Below the pieces are notes generated by a model, which worked only from the letters and a program-made list of their open reading frames with translations, had not been told where the DNA came from and did not search any database. Positions 10,548-24,983 of a stretch of DNA of 24,983 bases are shown piece by piece. The first letter of the stretch is position 1. The number at the start of each line of letters is the position of its first letter. The translations under genes and the position numbers were made by a program. Source of the DNA: Candidatus Thermosaccharophagus tengchongensis (lineage in GTDB: Bacteria > Armatimonadota > Fervidibacteria > Fervidibacterales > Thermosaccharophagaceae); assembly GCA_032161105.1 (NCBI GenBank), contig JAVHTD010000033.1; one strand, given 5' to 3'.

Positions 10548-10861
10548 CCTGACCACCTCCACAACCTCAAAGAGCGAGCGCCTCTCAAACGGGGAGCGGC
10601 TTCATCAGCGAACCCTTGCCCCTTTGTTTGCAGCTGCATTTGTTAGTTTCACACTGCACCCTCTTTCACTCATCAGATGGGCAAGCTGCATCTTTGGTTT
10701 CCCATTTTGGCATCACAAGCCAACGATTAGGATGCCGCAGAAGTGCTCCCCTGAGAGCACGCACAGCTAAAGCGCCAGATGGCAACAGGTGTGGTGATGT
10801 TGTCATCTTAATCATTGGCGCTTGCACAATTGATTGCCATTTGGTGGGAGTGATTGCGTGC

Positions 10862-13800
10862 ATGAGGATAAATGTTTCCCCTGCCCATTTGCGTTTGGCG
10901 CTCTGTTGGTTGACTGCTTTGCTGCTATCGCCTTACAGGTGCGCAAGTGGATTTCCTGAGGGGCAAGTTGCGAGGGTGCTAAATGCGCCAAGGGCTAATG
11001 TGAAGATGCAAATTGATGCCCTGCCAATTGAGTGGGCTATGACAGCGCCGTTGGCTGTCGGGAGCAGGGAACAAGTTCGTCCGAAGACTGCATGGGATGG
11101 TCCTCATGACTTGAGCGCTCTCATTCGGTGCATGTGGGATGAGGATGCGCTTTACGCCCTCATTGAAGTCTGCGATAGCAATGTCGTCATCAGCGACGAG
11201 ATCAGCCTTAGCGACCATCTTGTGATTTGGTTGGGCGAATACGGCATCCGCGTCGTTCCGCCTTTTGGGAAACAAGGCGCACGCGCATTTGATGCGCGGA
11301 CAAATTTGCAACTGCTTGAGGATGGCACATGGGCTGCTTCAGCGAACGGCGATTCTTGGTCTGTTGAGCTCCGCATCACATGGGATAAGCTCGCACAGCC
11401 AAATCCAGAAGGCGGAACTAAACTCGCCTTAAGCCTTGAAGTGAATGATGTTGACTCGTTTGGCGACAAGAAGACATTGAACGCTGCTGATATGAACTGC
11501 ATCACAGTCGTGCTTGATGATAGGGGACCGAGCCAATTGCTCACCGATACTGGTGTGCTTAGCGGCGCATGTTTGATAGAGACGAGCGCAAGTGAGCTCG
11601 TGCCGAATACCGAGTTGCAGATTGACATCCTGTTTCCACGCCTTCTCCTCGGCATAAGCGGAGTTGAGGCGGCTGTCGTGGATGACGCCGGAAACGAACT
11701 CGAGATGAAGCCGCTACACAGGGAACGCTGCGGCATCTTTTGGCGCTGGAGATATTCGTGGCTGATACCGCCGGAGGCTCATGGCAACTACAGCTTGAAG
11801 CTCAGCTTGCTCGGTGCTGATAACAAGCTGCTCACTGTGGTGGCTTACAGCATTGGAAGCACGGTGCACATTTCAACCCTGGACATGCGGATGCAAATTG
11901 ATGAACTTGTGTCCGAAGCGCGCTCACAGACTTTCAGGGCAAGGAGGCTGGGCGATGAAGTTGCTTGCGGGCGTTGGGCGACGCTTTGGTTGCATGCGGG
12001 CAGGCTGCAGGACGACTTTACAAGGATGACAAACGAGGAGCCAACACTTGATGCGGCTAAAGCCTTCTTGGCGCGCCTAAGCGACCTTCAAGGGATGCGC
12101 AAAAACATACTCTCCGGCAAAGACCCATTTGATGGGCGTAGCGGCGTGATTGAGCGCGCATACCTATCCGAGTTGGATAACACATTGCAGCCGTATTCGG
12201 TCTACATCCCGCCAATCTATCATGATGTGCTTTCGGGGAAGCCCGTTAAGTTGCCAAATGAACTGACAAGGGTTCTTGCCGAGGATGAGGAGCTTGCGAA
12301 GGCGCTTGATTTGAAATCCTTTAGGGTCAGCGGCTTCCCTATGGTTGTGCAACTTCACGGGTTGGGCGGAACACACGGAATTAGCTCACCGCCGCCGTCA
12401 AGCCCGCTTTGGGCTGTAATCATCTTGTCGCCATATGGGCGAGGTCCAACCGACTACAAATTGTGGGGCGAGGCGGATGTAATTCGTGCCATTAAGGAGG
12501 TGATGCGCACATATCGCGTTGATGAGGACAGAGTCTACATGACGGGGGTCTCAATGGGCGGGACTGGGTGTTGGCAGATTGCAACGCATTACCCGGATGT
12601 GTTTGCGGCTATTGCGCCCGTATGTGGCAATGCTGACCACAGGGTTTGGGAGAGGGAATGGAATTGGGGGCAACCCGAGAGGACATTCATGACCGATGTG
12701 CGCAACTTCTTGGAGAACTGCGAGAGCCCAGTTTTCCTCGCCGAGAACTTGATGCATGTGCCCGTCTATTGTGTTCACGGTGATGCCGATGATGTCGTTC
12801 CAGTTGGGCACTCAAGGAGCATGGTTGGGAGATTGCGCGAGCTCGGTTACAGCGTCATCTACGATGAACAAAAGGGTGTTGGGCATGGTGGCTTTCATGC
12901 GGGCACCTTTGAGAAGTTACATGCTTGGATGCTGAAGCAGGTGCGCAATCGCTATCCAAAGAGGGTCGTCTACAAGACCGGTTGGCTGAGATACAGTGGC
13001 GCATATTGGGTTGAGATAAATCGCTTTGAGCGCTACCTCAACTTCGCCATCATTGATGCCGAGGTTGTTTCACCAAATGCCATTTCGGTGCGCACAAGCA
13101 ATGTTGCTCATTTCACTCTGCGCCTCAATGACAACATAGTTGACACAACCAAGCCCGTGAGTATCTCCATTGACGGCGAGTTTGTGTATCGTGGTGGCGT
13201 TGGCAGGGATGGCTCTTTGTCGTTTGCAAAGCGCTGCCTCCCCGACGGAACATCTCAATGGGTTCCATCCGCTCAACCACATGGCATGGTCAAGTCAGCG
13301 CGCCTTGAAGGTCCGATTGAGGCTGCCTTCTTATCGCACTTCATCATCGCTTATGGCACAGTCGGCGATGACAGCAACGAGGTTGAAGTGAACGAAGCTG
13401 AAGCGAGGAAGCTTGCAGCGCATTGGGCGAGGTGGGCGAGCGGGAGGGCAATCGTAAAGCGAGATGTTGATGTGACGAGTGATGATATCGCAAACGCCAA
13501 CATTGTGCTCATAGGCAACTTGAAGAGCAATCACATCGTCAGGCAGGTAAACTCATTCCTGCCGATAAGGTTTGATGTGGGCAGCAATGCAGTCTTGATG
13601 GCAAACGGATTGCGATTTGAGGGCGATGATGTCGGCATCAATCTGGTGTATCCGAACCCGCTCAATCCAAAAAAGCTCATCGTCATACTTGGTGGCACAA
13701 CATGGAAGGGCACATTTGATGTTGTCAGGCGCTTCGGTAACTGGTTTGATTGGGGCGTGCTTGACCACAGGAAGTGGTATGACTTTGCCATCTACGATGC

Positions 13801-16800
13801 GCGGACGAGAGACGCAGAGGCATTTTTGGCAGTTGGCTTCTTTGACCAAGATTGGATGCTCTCGGGCGAACTGACATTTTACGGCGATGCCAAGTTCAGA
13901 CAAGCAACGCCACCACACTCACCACCGAGCAGGCGATGGGCGGGAACGCTTGAGCGCGCCGTTTATTTGAGCGACTTGAAGCCAATCAACTTCTCATCCG
14001 ACAAGGGACCGCTCGGAATAGACCGCACGACAGACGGATACCAGTTAACGCTTGGCGGAAGGCAATACAGCAAGGGGCTGAGCGTCCACCCGGATGCCGA
14101 GATCGTTTACGACATTGGCGGGCGTTTTAAGGCGTTTGAGTGTGTCGTCGGGATTGACACATCCGGCGAGAAGCCGGTCTCAAGGGCGAGGGAGCAAGCT
14201 GAGACGGTCACATTCCAAATCTTTGGCGATGGCAAGCTGCTCGCCGAAGTCACCGATGTCAAGTGGAACACGCCGCCAAAGCGCATAATGGTCAGCGTTG
14301 AAGGCGTGAGCATCCTCAAGCTCGTTGCGAGGCGTCAGAGTGGCGCAAGGTGGCTTTACGGCAAGGTTGATTTTGCTGACGCAAAACTGCTCAACGATAC
14401 GATGCACCAGCCTGATGCAGTTGGCGCGTTTGCGCTCTCAAAAGCGATTGACGGTGAAGTGTATGTAGTGCTCCCGAGAAGCCTCTATCAGGAGATTGAG
14501 TTGAATGACAGCTGGCGCATGCGTCCTGCGAGCTATGGCGAAGGCGTTGAGAGGGGTTGGCACGAAAAACCATTTGAGGTTGCTGAAGATGGCGCAAAGC
14601 CTCCCGACGATGAGCAGTTAGTCGCGGATGCCAAGCTCAAAGGCGAGCCCGAATTTGAGCCGCAAGGTGAACAGCCGGATTTGCAGCAATGGCAATTTGG
14701 TCTCCCTGCGGATTTGGGTGAGGTTGATCAGAAGGCTGAGATTAAGGGGTTGGAGTTACAAGTTAAGCTGCCGATGAGCGTGCACGGTGCTCTCATCCAA
14801 CATGGCATTCTGCAAGACCCGTGCATCGGTGAGCATCGCGCCAATGACTTTTTGAAGGAAAACAAGCAGCTGAGGTTGGCGGTTGACGAGGTTGGTGAAT
14901 TTGAGTGGTGGTTGCAGAGGGTTTTCCAAGTTCCCGAGGATTGGCGTTACAGGGTGGTGCTGCTTGAGCTAAACGGTGTGAGCTATCAAGCCGATGTGTG
15001 GGTGAATGGGAAGCCTGCGGGGAATTTGCGCGGCATGTGGCAAAGGCGCTCATTTGACATCACGACATTGCTAAATTTCGGCGGCGAGAATTTGCTCTCA
15101 ATTCGCCTCACCGACAGGGGAGTGCCGTGGACTTGCCCACCAAGGCGCATTGAACCGCCAAAGCCGTATGAGGCGCTTTTGCCGTCACTGTTTGATGGTG
15201 AGAGTGGTGGCATGAAGCTCATCCCGATCGGCATATGGCAGCCGATAAAGTTGCGCACCGTTGGGATGTGCATGCTTTCAAACTTGCGCATCAAAACGCT
15301 GTCGGCATCGCTTCATGAGGCATTGGTGCGCGTAGCGGTTACGGCAGTGAATGTGCACCCGCAAAGAGCAATCAAGGTGATGCTGCATGGGCAAATTGGC
15401 GGGTGCGGGTTTGTTTGGGGACAGCAGATTGAGCCGCAGGTTGTGGAACTCTCGGGTGGGGAGGCAAAAGATGTGGTTTGGTATGTGAGGTTGGGCAATC
15501 CGAGGCTTTGGTGGACGCATGATTTGTCGCAGGCGAGCGTTTATCAAATCGTCATCACGGCAACGCTTGATGGTGGCATCGTCACGGATGAACTAAGGTG
15601 TGAATTTGGCATACGCAAGGTTGAAGTTGCTCCACCGCAGGCTGCGGTCAAAGTGGCTGGCGGCATGGTGCGGCTTAACGGTGAGAGGTTTGTGCCAATC
15701 AAGGGGACGACATGGGTTGCTTCGGATCAATTGCTCAGGTTCACTGAAGAGCGCTATGAGAGGCTCTTGAAGAGGTTGATCCAACTTGGCTTCAATTGCC
15801 TTTATGTGAGTGGCACGACGCTGCCGGAGAGTGACTCCTTTTACAGCCTTTGCGACCGCTATGGCATCTTCGTCATTCAGGAGCTCCCAATCAGCGCGAT
15901 TGATTTGAGCCGAATAAAGCGAGACGAGTTGCTTGAGGCTGTCAGGCAGCTTGCCTTGAGGTTGCGCAATCATCCGAGCTTGCTCATGTGGAGTCTTGGC
16001 GTGAGCGAGGCGCAGGAGGCACAAGCAGTTGAGTTTGTTCAGAAGCTCATGGAGTTGCTCGCAAGCGTTGATGATGAGCGCATGATAGTCGTCAGGCTTG
16101 AATGGGGCAAGCAAAACTGCATCGCTCAAAGGGCGACAGATGACGCACTTGACATTTTGCCAAGCATGCCCTTGCTGCTCTACATGGGGGGCTTGCCGCC
16201 GGCTAAAGTTGGCAGTGATAGCGTGCACGATTGGCTCGCAACCAAGAGCGCAGTTGAGAGGATGCTCAGTAGTGCAAATTATGGCGGGTTCATCATTGGG
16301 CAATTCAATGAGCCGCGCATTGGCAGCGGGAGGGCGCTTGTCCAGTATGATGGTGGGATTACTCCGCCAGCATATGCGTTTGCTCGTGCGCTTCGCTCAG
16401 AGTTGCTGTTGGCTTTCAACGATAATGCAGTTTGCGTTATGCGCCAAAAGGGCGCTCGCGGCAAATTGGACGCAGCATTGCAAGTGGTTGCGTGTGATAG
16501 GCATGGCTCAATAAGGCAATCAATCGTGCTGATGCGAAACATTCATCCGGGTGAGAGGCGCACCGTTAAGCTCTCCGAGATTTGTGGTGGGCTGCTGGAT
16601 GACTGCCTCATCGGTGCTGGAGTGTATGTGCTCGGTGAGCGTGCGCCGTCATTTGTGACCGTGTCTGGCAACATTGACATTGTTCAAAGGCTTGCTGAAG
16701 GAGATGTGAAACGCGCTGCGCACATTGGCGCTGTGCCAATTCACAAGGCGATTTGGGTGGCAAAGGATGTGAACGCAGCCAACAGTGTCGCATCTGCGAT

Positions 16801-17974
16801 TGGCATAGCTGGCACACAGATAAAAGTTGTGCCAGTTGAGGATGTGATAGCCGATGACAAAGTCCTCACAAGCGCGCTTGAAGAAGTTGATGCCATCATC
16901 GTTGACGGTGAGGCTGTGAAGGCGTTCATCCATGCTGGCGTTGATGAGCGAGTTGGTGAGGCTATCGCAAAGGCTGTCTGGCGGGGCATTGGCTTGCTCT
17001 TCAATGGCTTGCCAGAAGTCCAAATCGGCGAAGCACCATTAAGTGGTCACATTCCATCACTTATGCCGGCAGTGTCATTCCTTGGCGCAGCCGAATTGGT
17101 TGAAGCCGACCTTAAAGTTGAGGAGCCAGAACATATCGCATTGAAGTGGCTCAACACAGCGGGCGCAAAAATTCGCAGGTGCGAAATGAGGGTGATTGTG
17201 CGCAGGGGTGCCATCGTCATCATCAGTGACAACATTGGCACGCCAATCCTGATTGAGAGCGCATATGGCAAAGGGAGAGTGCTTGCGTGGGTGGTCAACA
17301 TTGCATCGGATGAGTCTGCCATTACTCCGGCATCGTTTGCACAAGGTGCATTTGCGCTAACTCTCCTGTATGCCTGCAAGGCGCCTTTCGCTGCCATGAG
17401 GGCGTTAGCTAAGGTGCTGCAAGGGGTTGAACGAGAGCCAACTGAGGGTGCATTGCCTGAAGGTGAGAGATGGCAGAAGGAGCCCATTGAGCAACCTCAA
17501 CAATTTGAAGGTGAGCAGCAGTTTGAGGAGCAACCTTTTGGTGAGCGTTGGGGGATCGGCACGGAGCAATTCAAGTTTGAAGGGCTTCAACAGCCAACAG
17601 TAGAGCGACAGCAAGTTGAGCAAAGGGAAGCAGCAGCGCTTGTTGAAGGGATGCGCAAAGGGCAAATTGGTTTGATTGAAGTTAGCATTGAGCCAAAGGC
17701 GATTGAGCTGACTGAGGATGGCTTTCGCATAGAGGTGCGAATCAAGAACGGATTTGCGTTTCCGATGCCAGCTGTGGTGATAGAGGGCGAGTTGGATGGC
17801 TTGGGGGCTGAATTTGAGGATAACATGTTTGACATGATGCCGATGCAGGAGAAGAGTGTATGGCTTTCCCTTGGCAAGGCTGGTTTAAATGGGGAGAAGG
17901 TATTGCAAGTGAAAGTGAGGACACTCATCGGTGATGCAAAGCTGCTACTCACATTGCAACTGCCAAAGCCATGA
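10862..17974 (+). CDS. Giant secreted multidomain protein (~2370 aa): CBM9-like, alpha/beta-hydrolase (esterase/S9-like), NPCBM/NEW2, GH2 beta-mannosidase-like, GATase-like and Ig modules
   Basis: ATG 10862 with GGGAG upstream and a signal peptide. Motifs: WDGPHDLSA...WDEDALY; LHG.GG, G-V-S-M-G-G, HGDADDVVP, GVGH; VYLSDL...YSKGLSVH...F...VGID; LELNGVSYQADVWVNG, GIWQPI, PRLWW, FGIRKVE, FY.LCD.YGI.V.QE, RLRNHPSL.MW; terminal FEDNMFDMMP. Confidence 0.85.
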   Translation: MRINVSPAHLRLALCWLTALLLSPYRCASGFPEGQVARVLNAPRANVKMQIDALPIEWAMTAPLAVGSREQVRPKTAWDGPHDLSALIRCMWDEDALYALIEVCDSNVVISDEISLSDHLVIWLGEYGIRVVPPFGKQGARAFDARTNLQLLEDGTWAASANGDSWSVELRITWDKLAQPNPEGGTKLALSLEVNDVDSFGDKKTLNAADMNCITVVLDDRGPSQLLTDTGVLSGACLIETSASELVPNTELQIDILFPRLLLGISGVEAAVVDDAGNELEMKPLHRERCGIFWRWRYSWLIPPEAHGNYSLKLSLLGADNKLLTVVAYSIGSTVHISTLDMRMQIDELVSEARSQTFRARRLGDEVACGRWATLWLHAGRLQDDFTRMTNEEPTLDAAKAFLARLSDLQGMRKNILSGKDPFDGRSGVIERAYLSELDNTLQPYSVYIPPIYHDVLSGKPVKLPNELTRVLAEDEELAKALDLKSFRVSGFPMVVQLHGLGGTHGISSPPPSSPLWAVIILSPYGRGPTDYKLWGEADVIRAIKEVMRTYRVDEDRVYMTGVSMGGTGCWQIATHYPDVFAAIAPVCGNADHRVWEREWNWGQPERTFMTDVRNFLENCESPVFLAENLMHVPVYCVHGDADDVVPVGHSRSMVGRLRELGYSVIYDEQKGVGHGGFHAGTFEKLHAWMLKQVRNRYPKRVVYKTGWLRYSGAYWVEINRFERYLNFAIIDAEVVSPNAISVRTSNVAHFTLRLNDNIVDTTKPVSISIDGEFVYRGGVGRDGSLSFAKRCLPDGTSQWVPSAQPHGMVKSARLEGPIEAAFLSHFIIAYGTVGDDSNEVEVNEAEARKLAAHWARWASGRAIVKRDVDVTSDDIANANIVLIGNLKSNHIVRQVNSFLPIRFDVGSNAVLMANGLRFEGDDVGINLVYPNPLNPKKLIVILGGTTWKGTFDVVRRFGNWFDWGVLDHRKWYDFAIYDARTRDAEAFLAVGFFDQDWMLSGELTFYGDAKFRQATPPHSPPSRRWAGTLERAVYLSDLKPINFSSDKGPLGIDRTTDGYQLTLGGRQYSKGLSVHPDAEIVYDIGGRFKAFECVVGIDTSGEKPVSRAREQAETVTFQIFGDGKLLAEVTDVKWNTPPKRIMVSVEGVSILKLVARRQSGARWLYGKVDFADAKLLNDTMHQPDAVGAFALSKAIDGEVYVVLPRSLYQEIELNDSWRMRPASYGEGVERGWHEKPFEVAEDGAKPPDDEQLVADAKLKGEPEFEPQGEQPDLQQWQFGLPADLGEVDQKAEIKGLELQVKLPMSVHGALIQHGILQDPCIGEHRANDFLKENKQLRLAVDEVGEFEWWLQRVFQVPEDWRYRVVLLELNGVSYQADVWVNGKPAGNLRGMWQRRSFDITTLLNFGGENLLSIRLTDRGVPWTCPPRRIEPPKPYEALLPSLFDGESGGMKLIPIGIWQPIKLRTVGMCMLSNLRIKTLSASLHEALVRVAVTAVNVHPQRAIKVMLHGQIGGCGFVWGQQIEPQVVELSGGEAKDVVWYVRLGNPRLWWTHDLSQASVYQIVITATLDGGIVTDELRCEFGIRKVEVAPPQAAVKVAGGMVRLNGERFVPIKGTTWVASDQLLRFTEERYERLLKRLIQLGFNCLYVSGTTLPESDSFYSLCDRYGIFVIQELPISAIDLSRIKRDELLEAVRQLALRLRNHPSLLMWSLGVSEAQEAQAVEFVQKLMELLASVDDERMIVVRLEWGKQNCIAQRATDDALDILPSMPLLLYMGGLPPAKVGSDSVHDWLATKSAVERMLSSANYGGFIIGQFNEPRIGSGRALVQYDGGITPPAYAFARALRSELLLAFNDNAVCVMRQKGARGKLDAALQVVACDRHGSIRQSIVLMRNIHPGERRTVKLSEICGGLLDDCLIGAGVYVLGERAPSFVTVSGNIDIVQRLAEGDVKRAAHIGAVPIHKAIWVAKDVNAANSVASAIGIAGTQIKVVPVEDVIADDKVLTSALEEVDAIIVDGEAVKAFIHAGVDERVGEAIAKAVWRGIGLLFNGLPEVQIGEAPLSGHIPSLMPAVSFLGAAELVEADLKVEEPEHIALKWLNTAGAKIRRCEMRVIVRRGAIVIISDNIGTPILIESAYGKGRVLAWVVNIASDESAITPASFAQGAFALTLLYACKAPFAAMRALAKVLQGVEREPTEGALPEGERWQKEPIEQPQQFEGEQQFEEQPFGERWGIGTEQFKFEGLQQPTVERQQVEQREAAALVEGMRKGQIGLIEVSIEPKAIELTEDGFRIEVRIKNGFAFPMPAVVIEGELDGLGAEFEDNMFDMMPMQEKSVWLSLGKAGLNGEKVLQVKVRTLIGDAKLLLTLQLPKP

Positions 17975-17983
17975 TGGCAGGTG

Positions 17984-18338
17984 GTTTGTAGTTAGGCACG
18001 AAACGAAGTGAAGTGCCGTCAATGATGATGTGGACGCCACTCCGCCATCGCTTCGTGGCTTACTACGAACGGCTGTGAGGTTCGTAGTTAGGCACGAAAC
18101 GAAGTGAAGTGCCGTCAATGATGTTATGATGGACGCCACCTCGCTTTTGCTTCGTGGCTTACTACGAACGATGTCATGATGACGCCACTCCGCTTTGTGG
18201 CGGAGGTTCGTAGTAAGGCACGAAACGAAGTGTAGTGCCGTCAATGATGTCATGATGAACGCCACTTCGCTATTGCTTCGTGGCTTACTACGAACAATAT
18301 CATGATGACGCCACTTCGCTTTGTGGCTTACTACGAAC
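17984..18338. repeat. Array of REP-doublet (REPIN-like) elements, family A: three full copies (17984-18070, 18080-18169, 18206-18295) plus two half copies
   Basis: Each copy runs GTTYGTAGTWAGGCAC-GAAACGAAGTGWA-GTGCCGTCA...ACGCCAC...GCTTCGTGGCTTACTACGAAC. These are two inverted arms, each with GTAG followed by a short palindrome. Confidence 0.9.
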
Positions 18339-18362
18339 GGTGCATTGCTCAATTGATGTCGT

Positions 18363-18393
18363 TTGACGAGATTGCAATGTGAGACTTTACAAT
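18363..18393 (+). promoter_or_regulatory. Possible sigma70 promoter of pilin-like gene 1 (identical copy at 19618-19648)
   Basis: TTGACG, 19 bp, TACAAT. The spacer is longer than optimal. Confidence 0.4.
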
Positions 18394-18525
18394 CAAATTG
18401 CGCCATGCCAAAGTTAGGTTGTGGGAGTTGGGTTTTCTGAATGGGGTCAATCTCACACCGAAGGAGGTGATGCGGTGAAAGTTCACAGGGGCAGTTGTCC
18501 GAGTTCACGACGAGGAACGATGTGA

Positions 18526-18547
18526 GGCGGACTATCGTCCGCCCTAC
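18526..18547 (-). repeat. Single GTAG-type REP (second copy at 19782-19803)
   Basis: Minus strand GTAG-GGCGGAC-GATA-GTCCGCC. Confidence 0.75.
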
Positions 18548-18618
18548 AATCTCCACATGATGTTGTGTGAGGCTTTGAATGTGGTGTGTTCAAAATAAAC
18601 TCAAGGGAGGGATGTGAA

Positions 18619-19329
18619 ATGAAGCGAGCAAGTAGAATGCTTAGGTTGAGATGGGTAGGTTTTACGCTGATAGAGCTGCTGGTGGTGATAGCGATAATCG
18701 CCATCTTGGCAGCGATTCTGTTCCCTGTGTTTGCGAGGGCGAGGGAAAAAGCGAGAACTGCGTCATGTCAAAACAACTTGAAGCAATTGGTTGTGGGCGT
18801 ATTGGCGTATGTTCAAGATTACGATGAGATGTTCCCAATATTCGGTCCTCAGTGGGGTCAGAACCCAGACCCACCAGGCAGCGGTGTTTGTTGGTGGTTG
18901 GGAATCTACCCGTATGTCAAGAATGCACAAATTTATGTATGCCCACGCTACCCAGTTACAGGACCGTTTACTTACTGGGGACGAACTTTTGAAGTGGTGC
19001 CCAGGTATGGCATGAACCCCCGCATACATGTCGGTGTTCCGCTGGGTGGCAGTGGTGGCTTACATATTGCCAGCGTTAGAGCACCTGCTATGTTGGTAGT
19101 ATTGGCAGATAGCTGCCATGCGATGGGAGACGACTGGCGCTTTGCATGGCCATTAGCTCCGGGAGGTTATAATTCCACTCCCCGAAAGTGTGATGCAGCT
19201 CGGACTCAGCAGAACGAGGATTGGGCACCACACTTGGGTGGCACCAATTACGCATTTGCTGACGGGCATGTTAAGTGGCTTAAGGACAAGACTTTTTGGG
19301 CTGACCGAAGCACATACATGACGCCATAG
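18619..19329 (+). CDS. Prepilin-type N-terminal cleavage/methylation protein with H-X9-DG motif (DUF1559-like)
   Basis: [84 protein letters not shown]. Confidence 0.93.
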
Positions 19330-19398: not shown

Positions 19399-19593
19399 TT
19401 CGTTATCGCTTCGCAGCTTACTACGAATGATTGTGATGGACGCTATTTGAGGCACGAAACGAAGTGAAGTGCCGTCAACGATGTCATGATGAACCGTCAA
19501 CGATGTCATGTTAACGCCACTCCGCTATTGCTTCGTGGCTTACTACGAACGATGTCGTGATGACGCCACTTCGCTTTGTGGCTTACTACGAAC
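19399..19593. repeat. Family A REP-doublet cluster (degenerate half copy, near-full copy with internal duplication, half copy)
   Basis: GGCACGAAACGAAGTGAAGTGCCGTCA at 19451; CCGTCAACGATGTCATG duplicated; arms end in GGCTTACTACGAAC at 19550 and 19593. Confidence 0.85.
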
Positions 19594-19595
19594 AA

Positions 19596-19966
19596 TGCAT
19601 TGCTCAATTGATGTCGTTTGACGAGATTGCAATGTGAGACTTTACAATCAAATTGCGCCGTGCCAAAGTTAGGTTGTGGGAGTTGGGTTTTCTGAATGGG
19701 GTCAATCTCACACCGAAGGAGGTGATGCAGTGAAAGTTCACAGGGGCAGCTGTCCGAGTTCACGACTGAGGAACGATGTGAGGCGGACTATCGTCCGCCC
19801 TACAATCTACACATGATGTTGTGTGAGGCTTTGAATGTGGTGTGTTCAAAATAAACTCAAGGGAGGGATGTGAAATGAAGCGAGCAAGTAGAATGCTTAA
19901 GTTGAGATGGGTAGGTTTTACGCTGATAGAGCTGCTGGTGGTGATAGCGATAATCGCCATCTTGGC
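19596..19966 (+). repeat. Direct repeat copy 2: promoter, leader and prepilin N-terminus block
   Basis: About 98% identical to 18341-18710 (offset 1255-1256). Confidence 0.95.
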
Positions 19967-20642
19967 GGCTATACTGTTTCCCGTGTTTGCCAAGGCGAGG
20001 GAAAAAGCCAGGATGGCGAGCTGCCAGAGCAATCTGAAGCAACTCGGGATAGCGATGCGCGCTTACGCGCTTGATTATGATGGAATGCTCGTTCCATGGG
20101 GGTGTGGTCTATACAGCGCATTGCCAGCATACGAGAATGCGCCGTTCCGAGCTGATGAGGGTCCGCTCAGCAGGCTATATCCGTATGTCAAGAATGTCCA
20201 AATATATGTTTGCCCAAGTGCCCCTACTTTAACTTATGGGCGATGCAACATTACTCGTTCTGGCGTGCCTTGTGGCGCAGGTGCAAGCTACGGGTTCAAT
20301 TTATCCGCAAGTGGTAGAAGCGGGCGTCACGAGAGTGACCTTATATGGCCTGCTGAGACAATAGCGTTTGCTGACTCGGATGGTCAGCACTTCCTTAACG
20401 ACCCATTTTGCAATTACTGCCAGGGGAATGGAAACATGGTGCCAAGGCACAACGACATGTTGAATGTGCTCTATCAGGATGGTCATGTAAAAGCTCACAG
20501 GCTTGAATATCTACTCCCACCACCTTGGAACGCTGATAGGAACCGTAGGTTACCATCTCCGTCAGCGCAACCGGGTGACCCCGAAATTTCAAGGCTTTGG
20601 GTGCTATGGCGCGGCGTCACGACAACTGGTCTTGTGAGGTAG
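19875..20642 (+). CDS. Prepilin-type N-terminal cleavage/methylation protein with H-X9-DG motif (DUF1559-like)
   Basis: Same RBS and leader as gene 1; [14 protein letters not shown]...[38 protein letters not shown]. Confidence 0.93.
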
Positions 20643-22748: not shown

Positions 22749-24983
22749 ATGGTGGGACAGTTTTTGGTTGTGTGGGAAGGACTTAGCAGAGGATGTGCAC
22801 TCCCCTTGCTACTGCTATTTTTTTCGCTCATTCCCTTCGGTATGGTGATGGGGCAGGTTGTTACGGATTTTGATCCCAATGAACCGATCGGCAAGCGACC
22901 TTATGAGATGGAGTGGGCGAATCGCAAAGAACCGCGCCCTCCGACAATCACCTTCAGCAACCTACAAGGTTGGCGGATGGAAGTTGAAGGCGGTGCGGTC
23001 GCAATTTTCCGACCAAGCCGAGAGCAAAATGTCTGGGACCGTCCAGTCGGCAAGTTAACCTATCGCGGCAACGGCGACCCAAATTCTCGTCCGAAAATTT
23101 TGCTTTACCCGCCAAAACCTATTCCCATCCCAGACGGCAGCGATTGCGTTGATGCTTGGATTTACGGCAACAGGTGGGGTTGGGAAAATCCGCCTGATAC
23201 GCCGCCAGTCCAAATTTTCCTTCACCTGCGCGACGGCAAAGGGCAAGTGCAACGAGTGCACTTGACAACTGTTAACTGGAAGGAATGGTGGCTCGCGCAC
23301 CGAAGGTTGTTCCCTTTGCCTCAAGGCGGCGAGACGAAAGGATGGGAGTTCATTGCACTTGAAATCGTTGGCGGTTGGCAACCACAAGACCGAACAATTT
23401 ACCTTGACAGTTTGACCTTTTACCGCGAACCGCTCTTGCCACTGAAATTCCCGCCGAGACCCAAACGCAACTTGACACTTTTTGAAGGACAATCTCCGGG
23501 GTTGAACATCGGAGGGCACGCCTCCGGCGTGCCGATTTTCGGTCGGGCAGGAGCCCGACCCTCCGAGAAAAAATTAGAGTTTCCGACGCGGGAAGAAACA
23601 ATCCTGCCCATCAACTTGACAAAGCGATTCCGCACGGAGGCGAAGCGAGAAGGCAATTTGTTCGTTTTCCGCTACATCGGCAGCGATTGCATTGTCACTT
23701 ACCGATTTGACCCTGCAAAGGGCTTATCGGGAATAACGGCAGTAGTGGAACATAGGGCAAGGGACACTGGGCAAGTTGGGAGAAGTTTAATCATCCAACC
23801 GCTCGCAGGTGCAGGTGTTAAGTTTGCTGGTGGAAGGCAAGTTCGTAGTGAGTCACAAAGCAGCAGCGGAGTGGCGTCATTTGACGGCACTTCACTTCGT
23901 TCCATGCCTAACTACGAACTTGAGGACAAATTGGTTCGTGCTGAACTGCGAAACGGGGTTGTGACCGCACGGTATGAAAGCGGAGTGATTTACCGCTTGA
24001 GGTTGTGGCAGAAATCGCTCGTTTTGGATGTCATTTGGGTTCGTAGTGAGTCACGAAGCGGTAGCGGAGCAGCGTCATCTAACGGCACTACACTTCGTTC
24101 CGTGCCTAACTACGAACCTATAGAAGTTTCCTTTGGCGAAATTCGCTTGCCCGAACTCAGCACCCCACACTCCGCACTTCGCACCATTTATGTGCCTTTC
24201 ATCACTTATGGTGGCAGCAACCCAGTTGTGGCGATGGTGGGAGGAGGGAGAGGGGACAAGGGGCGAGGTGTTTTCGTGAGCATTTGGCTTGATTGGTATC
24301 GCAGCAACGGGAGCGAACCTTACGCTTTTCCTGACGGTCAGTTTACGCCAACAGGTTTGCGAATTAACGGAGGTGTCCGATACCACCCGAAAACCGATGG
24401 CAAACGCAACGATGTCTTTGAACGAATTTTCGTCACGGTTTCGCCAACTTTTGAAGAAGTTCTGCCAGTCATACCGAACCCGAAAGGGCTTCACGCTCAC
24501 CTCGCTGTTGACAGGTTGTGGCAGGAAAGTTGGGGACCTGAGAATTACGAACGAGAGATGGAGCGAAGCCGAAGATTGCGTGCCTACGGAATTGTCAAGT
24601 TGATTCAATGCAACCACGAAATCACATGGCGAGACGGTGGTGAAAGTTTCACTCTGCGAACTAAGGCGGCGCCGGGCAAAGGCGGCGACGAAGCGCTGAA
24701 GCGTTACTTGGAGCACCAAAAGTCGCTTGGTTGGTTTGCTGGGCTTTACACAAATTACTGCGATTTCGCTCCCGTCAACGAATTTTGGAACCCTGATTTT
24801 GTCCAACGAACTCCCGAAGGAGAATGGCGACCTGCATGGCCGAGATGTTACGCCCTTAAACCTGCAGCAGCGGTGATGTTCCATGAAAAACTTGCGCCAA
24901 TCATAAAACGGAAGTTTCATGTTTGTAGTGAGGCACGAAGCATAAGCGGAGTGCCGTCAAAAACGCCACTTCGCTATCGCTCC
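22749..24983 (+). CDS. Large secreted protein, probable glycoside-hydrolase-like TIM-barrel region, carrying in-frame repeat insertions (3' truncated; absent from the ORF track)
   Basis: ATG 22749 after GGGGTGGT. Hand translation gives no stop to the window end: MVGQFLVVWEGLSRGCALPLLLLFFSLIPFGMVMG-QVVTDFDPNEPIGKRPYEMEWANR...WIYGNRWGW...FPTREETILP...WLDWYRSNGS...HEITWRDGGESFTLRTKAAPGKGGDEALKRY...LGWFAGLYTNYCDFAP...PAWPRCYALKP. The function call is weak; the coding status is strong. Confidence 0.85.
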   Translation, partial: MVGQFLVVWEGLSRGCALPLLLLFFSLIPFGMVMGQVVTDFDPNEPIGKRPYEMEWANRKEPRPPTITFSNLQGWRMEVEGGAVAIFRPSREQNVWDRPVGKLTYRGNGDPNSRPKILLYPPKPIPIPDGSDCVDAWIYGNRWGWENPPDTPPVQIFLHLRDGKGQVQRVHLTTVNWKEWWLAHRRLFPLPQGGETKGWEFIALEIVGGWQPQDRTIYLDSLTFYREPLLPLKFPPRPKRNLTLFEGQSPGLNIGGHASGVPIFGRAGARPSEKKLEFPTREETILPINLTKRFRTEAKREGNLFVFRYIGSDCIVTYRFDPAKGLSGITAVVEHRARDTGQVGRSLIIQPLAGAGVKFAGGRQVRSESQSSSGVASFDGTSLRSMPNYELEDKLVRAELRNGVVTARYESGVIYRLRLWQKSLVLDVIWVRSESRSGSGAASSNGTTLRSVPNYEPIEVSFGEIRLPELSTPHSALRTIYVPFITYGGSNPVVAMVGGGRGDKGRGVFVSIWLDWYRSNGSEPYAFPDGQFTPTGLRINGGVRYHPKTDGKRNDVFERIFVTVSPTFEEVLPVIPNPKGLHAHLAVDRLWQESWGPENYEREMERSRRLRAYGIVKLIQCNHEITWRDGGESFTLRTKAAPGKGGDEALKRYLEHQKSLGWFAGLYTNYCDFAPVNEFWNPDFVQRTPEGEWRPAWPRCYALKPAAAVMFHEKLAPIIKRKFHVCSEARSISGVPSKTPLRYRS
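23509..23566. repeat. In-frame REP doublet, family B (GGAG-type)
   Basis: TCGGAG-GGCACGCC-TCC-GGCGTGCC-GATTTTC-GGTCGGGC-AGGA-GCCCGACC-CTCCGA: terminal inverted repeat plus two perfect 8-bp hairpins. Confidence 0.85.
23841..23919. repeat. In-frame family A element, copy 1
   Basis: GTTCGTAGTGAGTCAC...GTGGCGTCATTTGACGGCAC...TGCCTAACTACGAAC; encodes VRSESQSSSGVASFDGTSLRSMPNYE. Confidence 0.93.
24039..24117. repeat. In-frame family A element, copy 2
   Basis: GTTCGTAGTGAGTCAC...GTGCCTAACTACGAAC; encodes VRSESRSGSGAASSNGTTLRSVPNYE. Confidence 0.93.
24151..24185 (+). repeat. In-frame degenerate heptamer tandem repeat (consensus CCGCACT)
   Basis: CCGAACT CAGCACC CCACACT CCGCACT TCGCACC. Confidence 0.7.
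24921..24983. repeat. In-frame family A element, copy 3 (truncated by the window end)
   Basis: GTTTGTAGTGAGGCACGAAGCATAAGCGGAGTGCCGTCA-AAA-ACGCCACTTCGCTATCGCTCC; encodes VCSEARSISGVPSKTPLRYRS. Confidence 0.88.

Follow-up and report, generated by a model that had tools for sequence, protein, structure and literature searches.

The stretch of DNA analyzed here (the window; 24,983 nt) belongs to a draft genome of 2.74 Mb that is 97.4% complete and Fervidibacter-like (Armatimonadota) in appearance (G000; draft assemblies were used throughout), and ends where its contig, C33, ends. The last ORF of the window, which begins at 22749 and encodes a product with a hydrophobic N-terminus, contains no stop across its 745 aa and carries, in frame, copies of a palindromic repeat that also makes up two arrays between genes, the first of these starting 10 nt past the stop of a 2452-aa ORF (Table 1). 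An earlier note on this DNA had placed the repeat three times in frame within this ORF, and this is indeed what we find: the three copies lie 1092, 1290, and 2172 nt from 22749, each offset being divisible by 3, so that all begin at codon position 1. The intergenic arrays belong, as that note also held, to the same family, with doublets of 87-90 nt versus the 79-nt coding copies.

Table 1. Features of the window, and single-unit inserts elsewhere in the same genome
Feature	Position	Strand	Basis or remark
Intergenic array, 7 units including three full doublets of 87-90 nt	17984..18338	.	same REP family
Second intergenic array, 3 units and one weak match	19402..19593 (start approximate)	.	same REP family
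Host gene, 5' half, 745 aa, runs off contig end	22749..24983	+	ORF list, translation
Tract 99% DNA-identical to G004:C4:41737-43878	22842..24983	+	left breakpoint ~22842-22869
In-frame doublet, second REP family, GGAGGG head, aa 255-272, GGHASGVPIFGRAGARPS	23511..23564	+	alignment, arm match
In-frame REP doublet, copy 1, 79 nt, aa 365-390, VRSESQSSSGVASFDGTSLRSMPNYE	23841..23919	+	motif, unit profile
In-frame REP doublet, copy 2, 79 nt, aa 431-456, VRSESRSGSGAASSNGTTLRSVPNYE	24039..24117	+	motif, unit profile
In-frame REP doublet, copy 3, cut by contig end	24921..24983	+	motif, unit profile
Single-unit insert	C13 frame (NlpC/P60), G000		
Single-unit insert	C9 frame (BNR), G000		

The repeat is built of units of ~37 nt, in which GTTC-GTAG-T is followed by a short stem-loop, GCCAC...GTGGC or GGCAC...GTGCC, with a stem of 5 bp and 2 inner pairs in the alignment of 52 units; GTAG occupies unit positions 5-8 in all 52, and with the conserved GTTC before it is subterminal. 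Two inverted units (GTTCGTAGT...ACTACGAAC) form a doublet of 79-94 nt that ends in perfect 9-nt terminal inverted repeats and folds, over its whole length, as one long hairpin. The window contains 18 matches to GTTCGTAGT with at most one mismatch, compared with a mean of 2.21 and a maximum of 7 in shuffled sequence, and none of 100 shuffles reached 18. Genome-wide, G000 contains ~26 tail-to-tail doublets, and the unit profile recovers 88 unit matches at E<10 and 23 loci on 13 contigs at E<1e-3. Single units and tandem arrays with ~10-nt spacers are common both there and in G004, a relative from a different family, and the distribution of the repeat among relatives is patchy, from 0 to 486 pattern matches per genome. 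REPINs consist of two inverted REP units that make up one hairpin-forming doublet, and the present repeat appears to be a similar element, that is, a dispersed, GTAG-type REP doublet.

The same perfect inverted ends, the length of 79-94 nt, and the whole-length hairpin potential would also be expected if the element were a DDE-type MITE, meaning a shortened insertion sequence that retains terminal inverted repeats, and the failure to find a cognate RAYT in G000 or 24 relatives (see below) points in the same direction. Target-site duplications are, however, absent: a flanking direct repeat was detected at 1 of 26 doublets for k=3, 1 of 26 for k=4, and 0 of 26 for k>=5. Furthermore, the single units and tandem arrays are organized as REP/BIME elements, the unit consists of GTAG and then a stem-loop, and no two units in G000 have the spacing expected for the ends of a full-length insertion sequence, so we regard a MITE origin as quite improbable. 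Because no target-site duplications are found, mobilization of the REP doublets would most likely have occurred via a single-strand HUH (RAYT-like) route or by recombination. A RAYT gene flanked by this REP, which the earlier note proposed to look for, did not turn up in the draft assemblies, which may lack it. In G000, there is no match to PF01797 or NF047646; PF01797 is matched in 4 of 5 chosen relatives, with no GTTCGTAGT unit nearby, and the NF047646 search covered 25 genomes; of the 15 RAYT-like loci in 10 of the 25, none has a GTTCGTAGT unit within ~1.5 kb. The RAYT of G004 (NF047646, 91 bits, cut-off 80) is flanked by GTAGGGGC... repeats, and that of G003, a genome of the same genus as G000, by GGGAGGGTGAGGCTCC... 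repeats. The repeats flanking the G003 RAYT gene are matched by an arm, GGAGGGTCGGGCTCCTGCC, of the second-family doublet inside the host gene.

The third copy in the host gene is whole only in the near-identical gene of G004, where it is 79 nt long (VCSEARSISGVPSKTPLRYRSVANYE) and the frame continues beyond it. That gene encodes about 1546-1547 aa in an open frame, which bears out, in an independent assembly, the expectation that no stops lie downstream, and contains six inserts, three from each of two REP families. The arm types of copy 3 are in reverse order relative to copies 1 and 2, which implies at least two separate insertion events. Compared with empty orthologue sites, the copy 1 insertion amounts to 81 nt. 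Between copies 1 and 2, there are 7 codon differences, each of them non-synonymous; the computed hairpin energies are -31.5 kcal/mol for copy 1, -27.2 for copy 2, and -40.1 for copy 3 of G004, against -37.6 to -42.2 kcal/mol for intergenic copies. Stops are absent from both frame +1 and frame +2 of each of the two 79-nt copies, so a shared phase of the three copies is only a mild coincidence, and the idea that frame +1 is forced has to be rejected. The short spacer, which the earlier note pointed out in the two complete coding copies, is not special to coding copies: doublets of 76-82 nt occur outside long ORFs in G004 as well, and with those of 77-78 nt lying outside long frames, we rejected the 2-nt spacer as an adaptation to coding.

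A clue to the identity of the host protein comes from its predicted fold. The Pfam search of the half encoded in the window found no family, but the structure model (mean pLDDT 83, pTM 0.81) has as its best Foldseek matches a GH101 structure (3ecq, E 6.4e-13, TMq 0.27) and a GH129 structure (5wzp, E 1.2e-7, TMq 0.33). By this likeness of fold, the gene product may be a large, GH101/GH129-like multi-domain protein of the glycoside hydrolase type, and it is probably secreted. Its 202 homologues, 1305-3725 aa in length, are labeled by their sources as Candidatus Fervidibacter or Armatimonadota.

Alignment to these homologues reveals the repeat-encoded peptides as insertions, as the earlier note had predicted. 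They are missing from 68 of the 68 other aligned homologues: residues 366-385, within copy 1, are occupied in none of the 68, residues 432-453, within copy 2, in 0-6, residues 729-745, within copy 3, in 2-3, and residues 256-272, within the second-family insert, in 0-1. At the level of the locus, 8 of 9 orthologues have none of the three copies, G004 being the one genome with all three. The predicted placement in loops is also borne out in the model. In the otherwise confident structure, pLDDT falls below 50 only at residues 1-12, 259-272, 363-388, 438-441, 447-449, and 727-745, so the inserts coincide with low-confidence segments that lie between predicted strands or after a helix; thus, the stretch at 363-388 (copy 1) is between the strands 356-359 and 395-401, and the dip at 438-449 (copy 2) is between the strands 423-430 and 457-461. 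Most likely, the inserts would be floppy surface loops that the fold tolerates; low pLDDT is, to be sure, expected wherever an alignment lacks depth, which weakens the loop placement derived from the predicted structure.

Given that contig C33 ends inside copy 3, and that copies 1 and 2 each interrupt the unitig-like contigs of the DNA run X11, one has to consider the possibility that the intragenic copies are assembly artefacts, with repeats wrongly threaded into the gene. This we deem extremely improbable: the identical arrangement recurs in G004, which was assembled independently, on a contig of 154,935 nt, the stretch is present in 17 DNA runs from hot springs, the X11 contigs tile all junctions, with one of 2101 nt crossing copy 3 and extending 1492 nt beyond it, and the frame is kept each time. 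The hairpins, at -27 to -40 kcal/mol, are strong, which could suggest that they are removed or bypassed at the RNA level such that the peptides are never made, an alternative that the earlier note had raised. We know of no bacterial mechanism for such removal, and no joint skipping an element was detected in the covered parts of the gene in three RNA-library runs and one DNA run. In the RNA library X19, a 158-nt contig covers 23816-23958, that is, copy 1 with its flanks; left of copy 1 it reaches just 25 nt, and contaminating DNA could be its source. Coverage of the gene body is incomplete in runs X18 and X20 and is confined to small pieces in X19. Moreover, the intragenic copies retain an open frame and a frame-preserving length, which would be needless if they were excised, making RNA-level removal highly improbable.

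A different question is to which organism the gene segment belongs. The tract that is nearly identical to G004 begins abruptly within the host gene, whereas in the rest of the window (~17.8 kb searched) matches come from same-genus genomes only, at 66-85%, with no comparable G004 match, so that the segment reflects either recent lateral transfer or a chimeric contig. If C33 is a chimera, with its join in conserved sequence close to the signal-peptide boundary, the segment would come from a G004-like organism of a different family rather than having entered G000 by real recent transfer or recombination. The abrupt switch fits such a chimera, as do the presence of a separate orthologue, 85% identical, at the syntenic position of the same-genus G003, and the counts of the GGAGGGTCGGGCTCCTGCC pattern, 128 in G004 and only 7 in G000; in addition, the C-terminal half of the gene is nowhere in G000. 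Conversely, the conserved run at the switch is short (~18-27 nt), giving an assembler little to cross. Furthermore, another gene of G000, the GH5-like gene on contig C12, is much nearer to G004 and the genome G006 (88-94% aa identity) than to the same-genus G003 (74-84%), as would be expected if genes are really exchanged between these lineages. Two strings across the junction, 22826-22869 and 22852-22891, had no exact match in metagenome contigs, a result that weighs neither way. On balance, we consider a chimeric C33 possible, if somewhat unlikely.

The host gene at 22749 is one of several. In G000, 7 of 23 element loci lie in frames of at least 300 aa, with 16 of 23 outside such frames, and in G004, this is the case for 20 of 66 surveyed loci, 5 of the 20 being at frame edges; this share of loci in long frames is high. 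The host frames are mostly glycoside hydrolase genes, and 9 of the 14 scanned contain a glycoside-hydrolase or carbohydrate-binding Pfam domain. In G000, at least two further genes, a GH42-like gene on contig C17 and the C12 gene, carry in-frame doublets that are missing from orthologues in which the matches on either side abut in the DNA. In every intragenic copy seen, the frame is open and the length keeps the host frame. The reading frame used differs by gene, yielding VRS...NYE, VCS...WLTTN, and FVVSHEA...CLTTN peptides, and therefore there is no single conserved peptide. A six-frame scan of G000 for G/R/D/K/T-rich peptides, a further candidate for an inserted repeat, gave only 9 matches in frames of at least 200 aa.

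Taken as a whole, these observations are likely to be best explained by REP doublets that inserted in the gene and are co-translated as tolerated loops, as selfish passengers. Doublet copies would have inserted into a large GH101/GH129-like gene of the Fervidibacter lineage; most insertions into genes presumably are lost, and survival would call for an added length divisible by 3 (here, 79 + 2 = 81), for a reading of the element in a frame free of stops, and for a site in a loop that separates secondary-structure elements, the survivors then being co-translated as putative disordered, Ser/Gly-rich loops of 26-27 aa. Such inserts would be passengers and not selected modules, a reading suggested by the codon differences between copies 1 and 2, all of which change the amino acid, and by the decayed hairpins of these copies. 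The central reading of the earlier note, an RPE-like family that would add new peptide sequence to proteins of an Armatimonadota-like lineage, is supported.

It is conceivable, instead, that the inserts have been exapted, for example as flexible or glycosylatable surface loops, rich in Ser, Gly, and Thr, on secreted enzymes, or that the hairpins are functional, as recombination hot spots or in transcript stabilization or translational pausing. Carbohydrate-active hosts are strikingly frequent, one gene contains 3 + 3 inserts of two families, and the hairpin of copy 3 is still strong. Also, the C17 insert is kept in frame in two species, G000 and G003, at only 81% protein identity, and its element arms are identical at 35/36 and 32/36 nt, above that level, which could reflect gene conversion, or a hairpin under constraint as DNA or RNA, rather than pure neutrality. 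Nevertheless, the divergence between copies 1 and 2, the use of different frames and different peptides in different genes, and the lack of inserts in most orthologues all speak against selection for the inserts, and the share of carbohydrate-active hosts is a raw count from the frames scanned. Very many CAZyme genes are reported for Fervidibacter (PMC11535203). Hence, we view exaptation as improbable, and the passenger reading as the one to retain.

The broader significance of these findings is that protein-coding palindromic repeats extend to a phylum for which we found no report of them: a full-text literature search yielded no paper on Armatimonadota with the phrase 'repetitive extragenic palindromic', and the words 'palindrom', 'transposase', and 'insertion' are absent from the Fervidibacter sacchari genome paper. 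Apparently, disordered inserts of 26-30 aa can be accommodated even in proteins active at very high temperatures. In practice, the inserts break assemblies, split homology matches, and could mislead annotation, and they affect expression constructs for glycoside hydrolases, the biotechnological interest of this lineage. The natural pairs of enzymes with and without inserts provide a test bed for the effects of loops born of selfish DNA on stability and activity. A bolder scenario, which we put forward as a long shot, is that REP doublets of at least two families preferentially persist in the loops of large, secreted polysaccharide-degrading enzymes of Fervidibacter-like hyperthermophiles, with up to six per gene, and that REP-laden genes move between family-level lineages. 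If so, the repeats would be a lineage-wide generator of surface-loop novelty and, possibly, recombination breakpoints for the exchange of gene segments, beyond tolerated junk.

Among the known systems that come close are the Rickettsia palindromic elements (RPE). In the work of Ogata et al. (2000 in Science and 2002 in Genome Res) and of Claverie and Ogata (2003 in TiBS), RPE are reportedly in-frame palindromic repeats in genes for unrelated proteins. They are said to be missing from orthologues, to occupy sites compatible with the protein fold, and to have been read as selfish DNA that creates new peptide segments. The repeat described here shares with RPE the in-frame insertion in protein genes, the orthologues without insert, and the placement where the fold tolerates it, in our case in predicted structure only. 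There is, however, no sequence relationship, and the tag is GTAG, not CGTC, so that the element works like an RPE but is not one. The available portions of two papers (PMC3733652, PMC10969869) describe RPE as about 150 bp long or, in short families, CGTC-tagged, and the RPE host is an obligate intracellular alphaproteobacterium, whereas here we are dealing with doublets of 79-94 nt in a free-living hot-spring lineage of Armatimonadota. As in REPINs, the doublets are dispersed in tens to hundreds of copies and patchy among relatives; the association of REPs with RAYT, described in the accessible text of PMC3733652, was not seen for this unit: in G000 and 24 relatives, no RAYT flanked by it was found, the RAYTs there being flanked by other REP families. 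Bacterial MITEs, as covered in the available part of PMC10969869, are similarly small, non-autonomous elements with inverted ends that form in-frame fusions with host ORFs; unlike them, the present repeat lacks target-site duplications and forms the arrays of single units typical of REPs.

A further close parallel is with the GTAG-tagged REPs of Di Nocera, De Gregorio and Rocco (2013, BMC Genomics 14:522, PMC3733652). According to the available portions of that paper, a minority of REPs lie entirely within ORFs, over half of these being inserted as dimers or groups that encode 20-30 aa, and some ORFs contain two inserts; a genome may lack REPtrons, and 5-bp stems were accepted for Thauera GTAG-1. 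The published intragenic GTAG and CGTC REP dimers imply that the earlier note was too strong in regarding REPs as almost always extragenic, with RPE as the classic case of coding insertion, even if the intragenic ones are the smaller part. In common with those GTAG REPs, ours has a short palindromic unit with GTAG beside a stem-loop, is dispersed and mostly intergenic, and occurs in inverted pairs able to form a larger hairpin. In the published units, GTAG is terminal, whereas here GTTC comes before it; the phyla named in the portions at hand are Proteobacteria, Cyanobacteria, Chloroflexi, and PVC, as opposed to Armatimonadota; and the hosts stressed there function in DNA replication and repair, those found here being mostly glycoside hydrolases. 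One gene here contains three doublets, and its full-length G004 copy, six inserts of two families. Intragenic palindromic repeats have, then, precedents in Rickettsia and a few other bacteria, and the repeat in the Fervidibacter lineage is a new example, not a new principle.

The open frame that begins at 22749 runs without a stop to the end of the contig and encodes 745 aa; the window is one entire contig (C33) of the source genome, an assembly of 2.74 Mb in 44 contigs. The earlier note had claimed that a single element forms intergenic arrays and also sits three times at codon position 1 of this frame, and motif counts, coordinates and offsets all confirm it. With at most one mismatch, GTTCGTAGT matches 18 times in the window, against a mean of 2.2 and a maximum of 7 in shuffled sequences (0/100 reach 18), and the three in-frame copies start 1092, 1290 and 2172 nt from 22749, each at codon position 1. 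Around the intergenic arrays, the ~285-nt stretch that follows each is duplicated almost exactly (18339-18620 and 19594-19880) and leads into paralogous prepilin-type genes with an N-terminal methylation motif (ORFs 18586-19329 and 19842-20642), so that the arrays travel with a duplicated upstream region. A 2452-aa ORF (10616-17974) stops 10 nt short of the first REP unit, and a minus-strand 203-aa ORF (17945-18556) covers an entire array; since several frames of the element lack stop codons, this minus-strand ORF is most likely spurious.

REP-type features of the window and RAYT genes of related genomes; residues are those of the 745-aa fragment, and occupancy is counted in the other 68 members of a 70-homologue alignment
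Feature	Location	Strand	Residues	Occupied in other homologues	Description
REP doublet copy 1	23841-23919	+	366-385	0/68	79 nt, paired inverted ends
REP doublet copy 2	24039-24117	+	432-453	0-6/68	79 nt, paired inverted ends
REP doublet copy 3	24921-contig end	+	729-745	2-3/68	truncated by contig end
Second-family doublet	23511-23564		256-272	0-1/68	GC-rich, arms with GGAGGG head
Intergenic array	17984-18338				same REP family as copies 1-3, doublets of 87-90 nt
Intergenic array	~19402-19593				same REP family as copies 1-3, doublets of 87-90 nt
RAYT gene L011 (G004:C11)	1198-2202
RAYT gene L039 (G003:C97)	967-2185
RAYT gene L035 (G008:C41)

A six-frame search recovered the host gene in 24/41 relatives, in most of which the match is interrupted between query residues 363 and 392, right around copy 1. 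The prediction that the encoded peptides are insertions absent from homologues was borne out, given the vacancy of the copy 1 residues (table) and the lack of all three peptides in 8/9 aligned orthologue loci. In DNA, 81 nt have been added cleanly at site 1, of which the element accounts for 79; at sites 2 and 3 the loops are variable, and some close orthologues hold other short inserts there instead of the element. Among the orthologue loci compared, the inserts are common to G004 only, a genome placed in another family, whose gene has 1547 open codons and three doublets, the frame continuing past copy 3. The loops that accept REPs hold, in orthologues, low-complexity inserts rich in G/R/D/K/T/Q/W (e.g. 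GTRDKGHGT and GQGTWDKGQ, and a 39-aa run in locus L007), seen in loci L003-L009 at window residues 255-275, 340-346 and 725-750 and in the window at 23757-23786 and 24231-24270; similar motifs (RDTGQGA, NTGQGTWDK) occur in proteins from contigs C12 and C17, and a crude six-frame scan found nine such runs in long frames of the source genome. A further G-rich repeat may have given rise to these inserts. Within the genus, every orthologue of the host gene is truncated by a contig end after 150-250 codons (G001:C2:2-754, G002:C81:4186-4575, G003:C79:63768-64364), as if repeats within the gene break these assemblies too.

The provenance of the insert-bearing segment calls for caution. Window 22842-24983 shares 99% DNA identity with G004:C4:41737-43878, and the switch in identity is abrupt, at ~22842-22869; the remaining 17.8 kb searched are 66-85% identical to same-genus genomes, with no comparable G004 match. 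The second half of the host gene is absent from the source genome. The segment may have come in recently from a G004-like lineage, by acquisition or recombination; otherwise, the contig is chimeric. Some support for lateral acquisition comes from a gene on C12 that is also nearer to G004 and G006 than to G003, a genome of the same genus; scans of metagenome contigs for the junction string returned no match. The phenomenon is real whichever origin holds, because the G004 gene is intact.

With the 70-sequence alignment as input, AlphaFold2 modelled the 745-aa fragment at a mean pLDDT of 83 and a pTM of 0.81; residues 1-12, 259-272, 363-388, 438-441, 447-449 and 727-745 fall below a pLDDT of 50. 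Apart from the N-terminus, these segments are the inserts, predicted in positions that separate β-strands or follow the last helix, in line with the surface-loop positions for which the earlier note had proposed a test; this placement is supportive, not decisive, because an alignment without depth also gives low confidence. Foldseek comparison links the model to GH101 endo-α-N-acetylgalactosaminidases (3ecq, E 6.4e-13) as well as to GH129 and GH36-type enzymes. A Pfam search of the host protein gave no match, and the homologues bear the source names of hypothetical proteins of Candidatus Fervidibacter, Armatimonadota, Verrucomicrobia and Planctomycetes.

Searched with a regular expression, the source genome yields 26 doublets (79-94 nt) as well as compound forms, and a half-unit profile gives 88 matches at E<10, those at E<1e-3 making up 23 loci. 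The unit, ~37 nt long, consists of GTTC-GTAG-T, a 3-nt linker and a short imperfect stem-loop of one of two stem types (GCCAC...GTGGC or GGCAC...GTGCC); in a doublet, two units of different type meet tail to tail, and full doublets form a single long hairpin (-37.6 to -42.2 kcal/mol for intergenic copies). Direct repeats of at least 3 nt flank 1/26 doublets, and the family also occurs as single units and as arrays with ~10-nt spacers; taken together, these features give the anatomy of the GTAG-type REPs and REP dimers set out by Di Nocera et al. 2013 (PMC3733652), which differs from that of a DDE-type MITE. The family is patchily spread over 41 related genomes: G003 has 486 pattern matches, G004 and G015 have 93 apiece, three genomes have 25-38 and the others 0-9, against 70 in the source genome. 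Two doublets (G000:C2:199165-199249 and G000:C8:107254-107338), both at most ~4 kb from a contig end, are mutual reverse complements, flanks included; probably a single locus was assembled twice, or an inverted duplication took place recently.

The host gene carries, in addition, a doublet of a second REP family, the GGAGGG-headed arm of which matches repeats flanking the RAYT gene of G003. The pattern of this family occurs 7 times in the source genome versus 128 times in G004, and the full-length G004 gene holds three GGAGGG-headed elements and three GTTCGTAGT doublets, six inserts in all.

In-frame insertion of the element is general in this lineage: 7/23 element loci of the source genome lie within open frames of at least 300 aa, and two of these host genes were compared with their orthologues. 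A GH42-like gene on C17 contains a 90-nt doublet (VCSKARSEAECREETEIKRHSAGASWLTTN) at a site where the orthologue matches abut in DNA in four genomes; in G003 (81% protein identity) this site does hold the element, in a version with a longer spacer. The 94-nt doublet of a GH5-like gene on C12, read in frame 2, is single in G004 and G006 and absent elsewhere, and is part of a 138-nt tandem duplication (G000:C12:13490-13721, L015) together with 44 nt of coding flank. A G004 survey with the unit profile, covering pattern-seeded places (~±3 kb around each 16-nt pattern match) and not the whole genome, yielded 98 units in 66 loci; 20 of the 66 are in frames of at least 300 aa, five of these at frame edges, where they may be non-coding. 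Glycoside-hydrolase or carbohydrate-binding domains were detected by Pfam scan in 9/14 host frames: GH32, GH123 (two), GH2_N, α-amylase, GH5 (two, mutual orthologues), CBM4_9 and GH42. Three others have BNR/sortilin, NlpC/P60-LysM and DUF6259, and two have no Pfam domain. Different genes read the element in different frames, so there is no single conserved peptide.

That the in-frame copies are an assembly artefact finds no support. The stretch 23500-24983 is present in 17 hot-spring DNA runs (all 20 runs containing it come from 11 studies), short contigs of one DNA run, X11, tile all junctions, though broken inside copies 1 and 2, and a 2101-nt X11 contig spans copy 3 and extends 1492 nt beyond. 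Removal or bypass of the hairpin at the RNA level, the alternative raised previously, is likewise unsupported: one DNA run and three RNA-library runs contain no joint that skips an element, and a 158-nt contig of RNA-library run X19 (23816-23958) spans copy 1, with 25 nt to the left and 39 nt to the right, although DNA carry-over is possible.

Copies 1 and 2 differ at 9/79 nt in seven codons, all 7/7 changes being non-synonymous, and their hairpins (-31.5 and -27.2 kcal/mol, respectively) are weaker than those of intergenic copies, with two non-compensatory stem changes in copy 1. Divergence of this sort fits selfish DNA that the host tolerates. In copy 3 the order of the arm types is reversed and the hairpin is still strong (-40.1 kcal/mol); this copy is hence a separate event, and probably a younger one. 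An observation against pure neutrality comes from the C17 insert: its arms are identical between the source genome and G003 at 35/36 and 32/36 nt, above gene-wide conservation, which could reflect hairpin constraint or gene conversion.

The expectation of a RAYT, the HUH transposase that mobilises REPs, flanked by this REP was disappointed: the source genome (97.4% complete) yielded neither a RAYT nor a Y1 transposase, and the GTTCGTAGT unit is near 0/15 RAYT-like places, which occur in 10 of 25 genomes. The RAYT of G004 is clear (NF047646, 91 bits versus a cut-off of 80) and forms a classic REPtron, flanked by repeats of another family (GTAGGGGC...). In the relatives, the RAYT genes listed in the table (L011, L039, L035) are surrounded by arrays of REP families other than the present one (GTAGGGGCRG..., GGGAGGGTGAGGCTCC..., GTAGCGTCG...); thus, the order hosts at least four REP families, only some with an identifiable RAYT. 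Our best guess, because target duplications are lacking and the GTAG motif is present, is that an HUH single-strand route would move the element. REP-bearing species may lack REPtrons, as noted by Di Nocera et al. (PMC3733652).

We found no report of protein-coding palindromic REPs in Armatimonadota, the F. sacchari genome paper included. What makes the present case noteworthy is the combination of three to six inserts in a single gene, CAZyme hosts, a thermophile and a gene possibly shared laterally between lineages. The 2013 study (PMC3733652) describes GTAG and CGTC REPs wholly inside ORFs in several species, O. terrae and R. conorii having the largest numbers; of such intragenic inserts, over half are dimers or groups that encode 20-30 aa, and certain ORFs have two. 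Compared with the GTAG-REPs as presented there, the element agrees mostly but differs by its subterminal GTAG and the missing cognate RAYT. RPEs, which a 2024 MITE review (PMC10969869) treats as the extreme case of in-frame fusion, resemble the element in manner of working, although by sequence it is not an RPE. It is well supported, then, that the in-frame doublets are real and of a kind already known from GTAG-REPs and RPEs.
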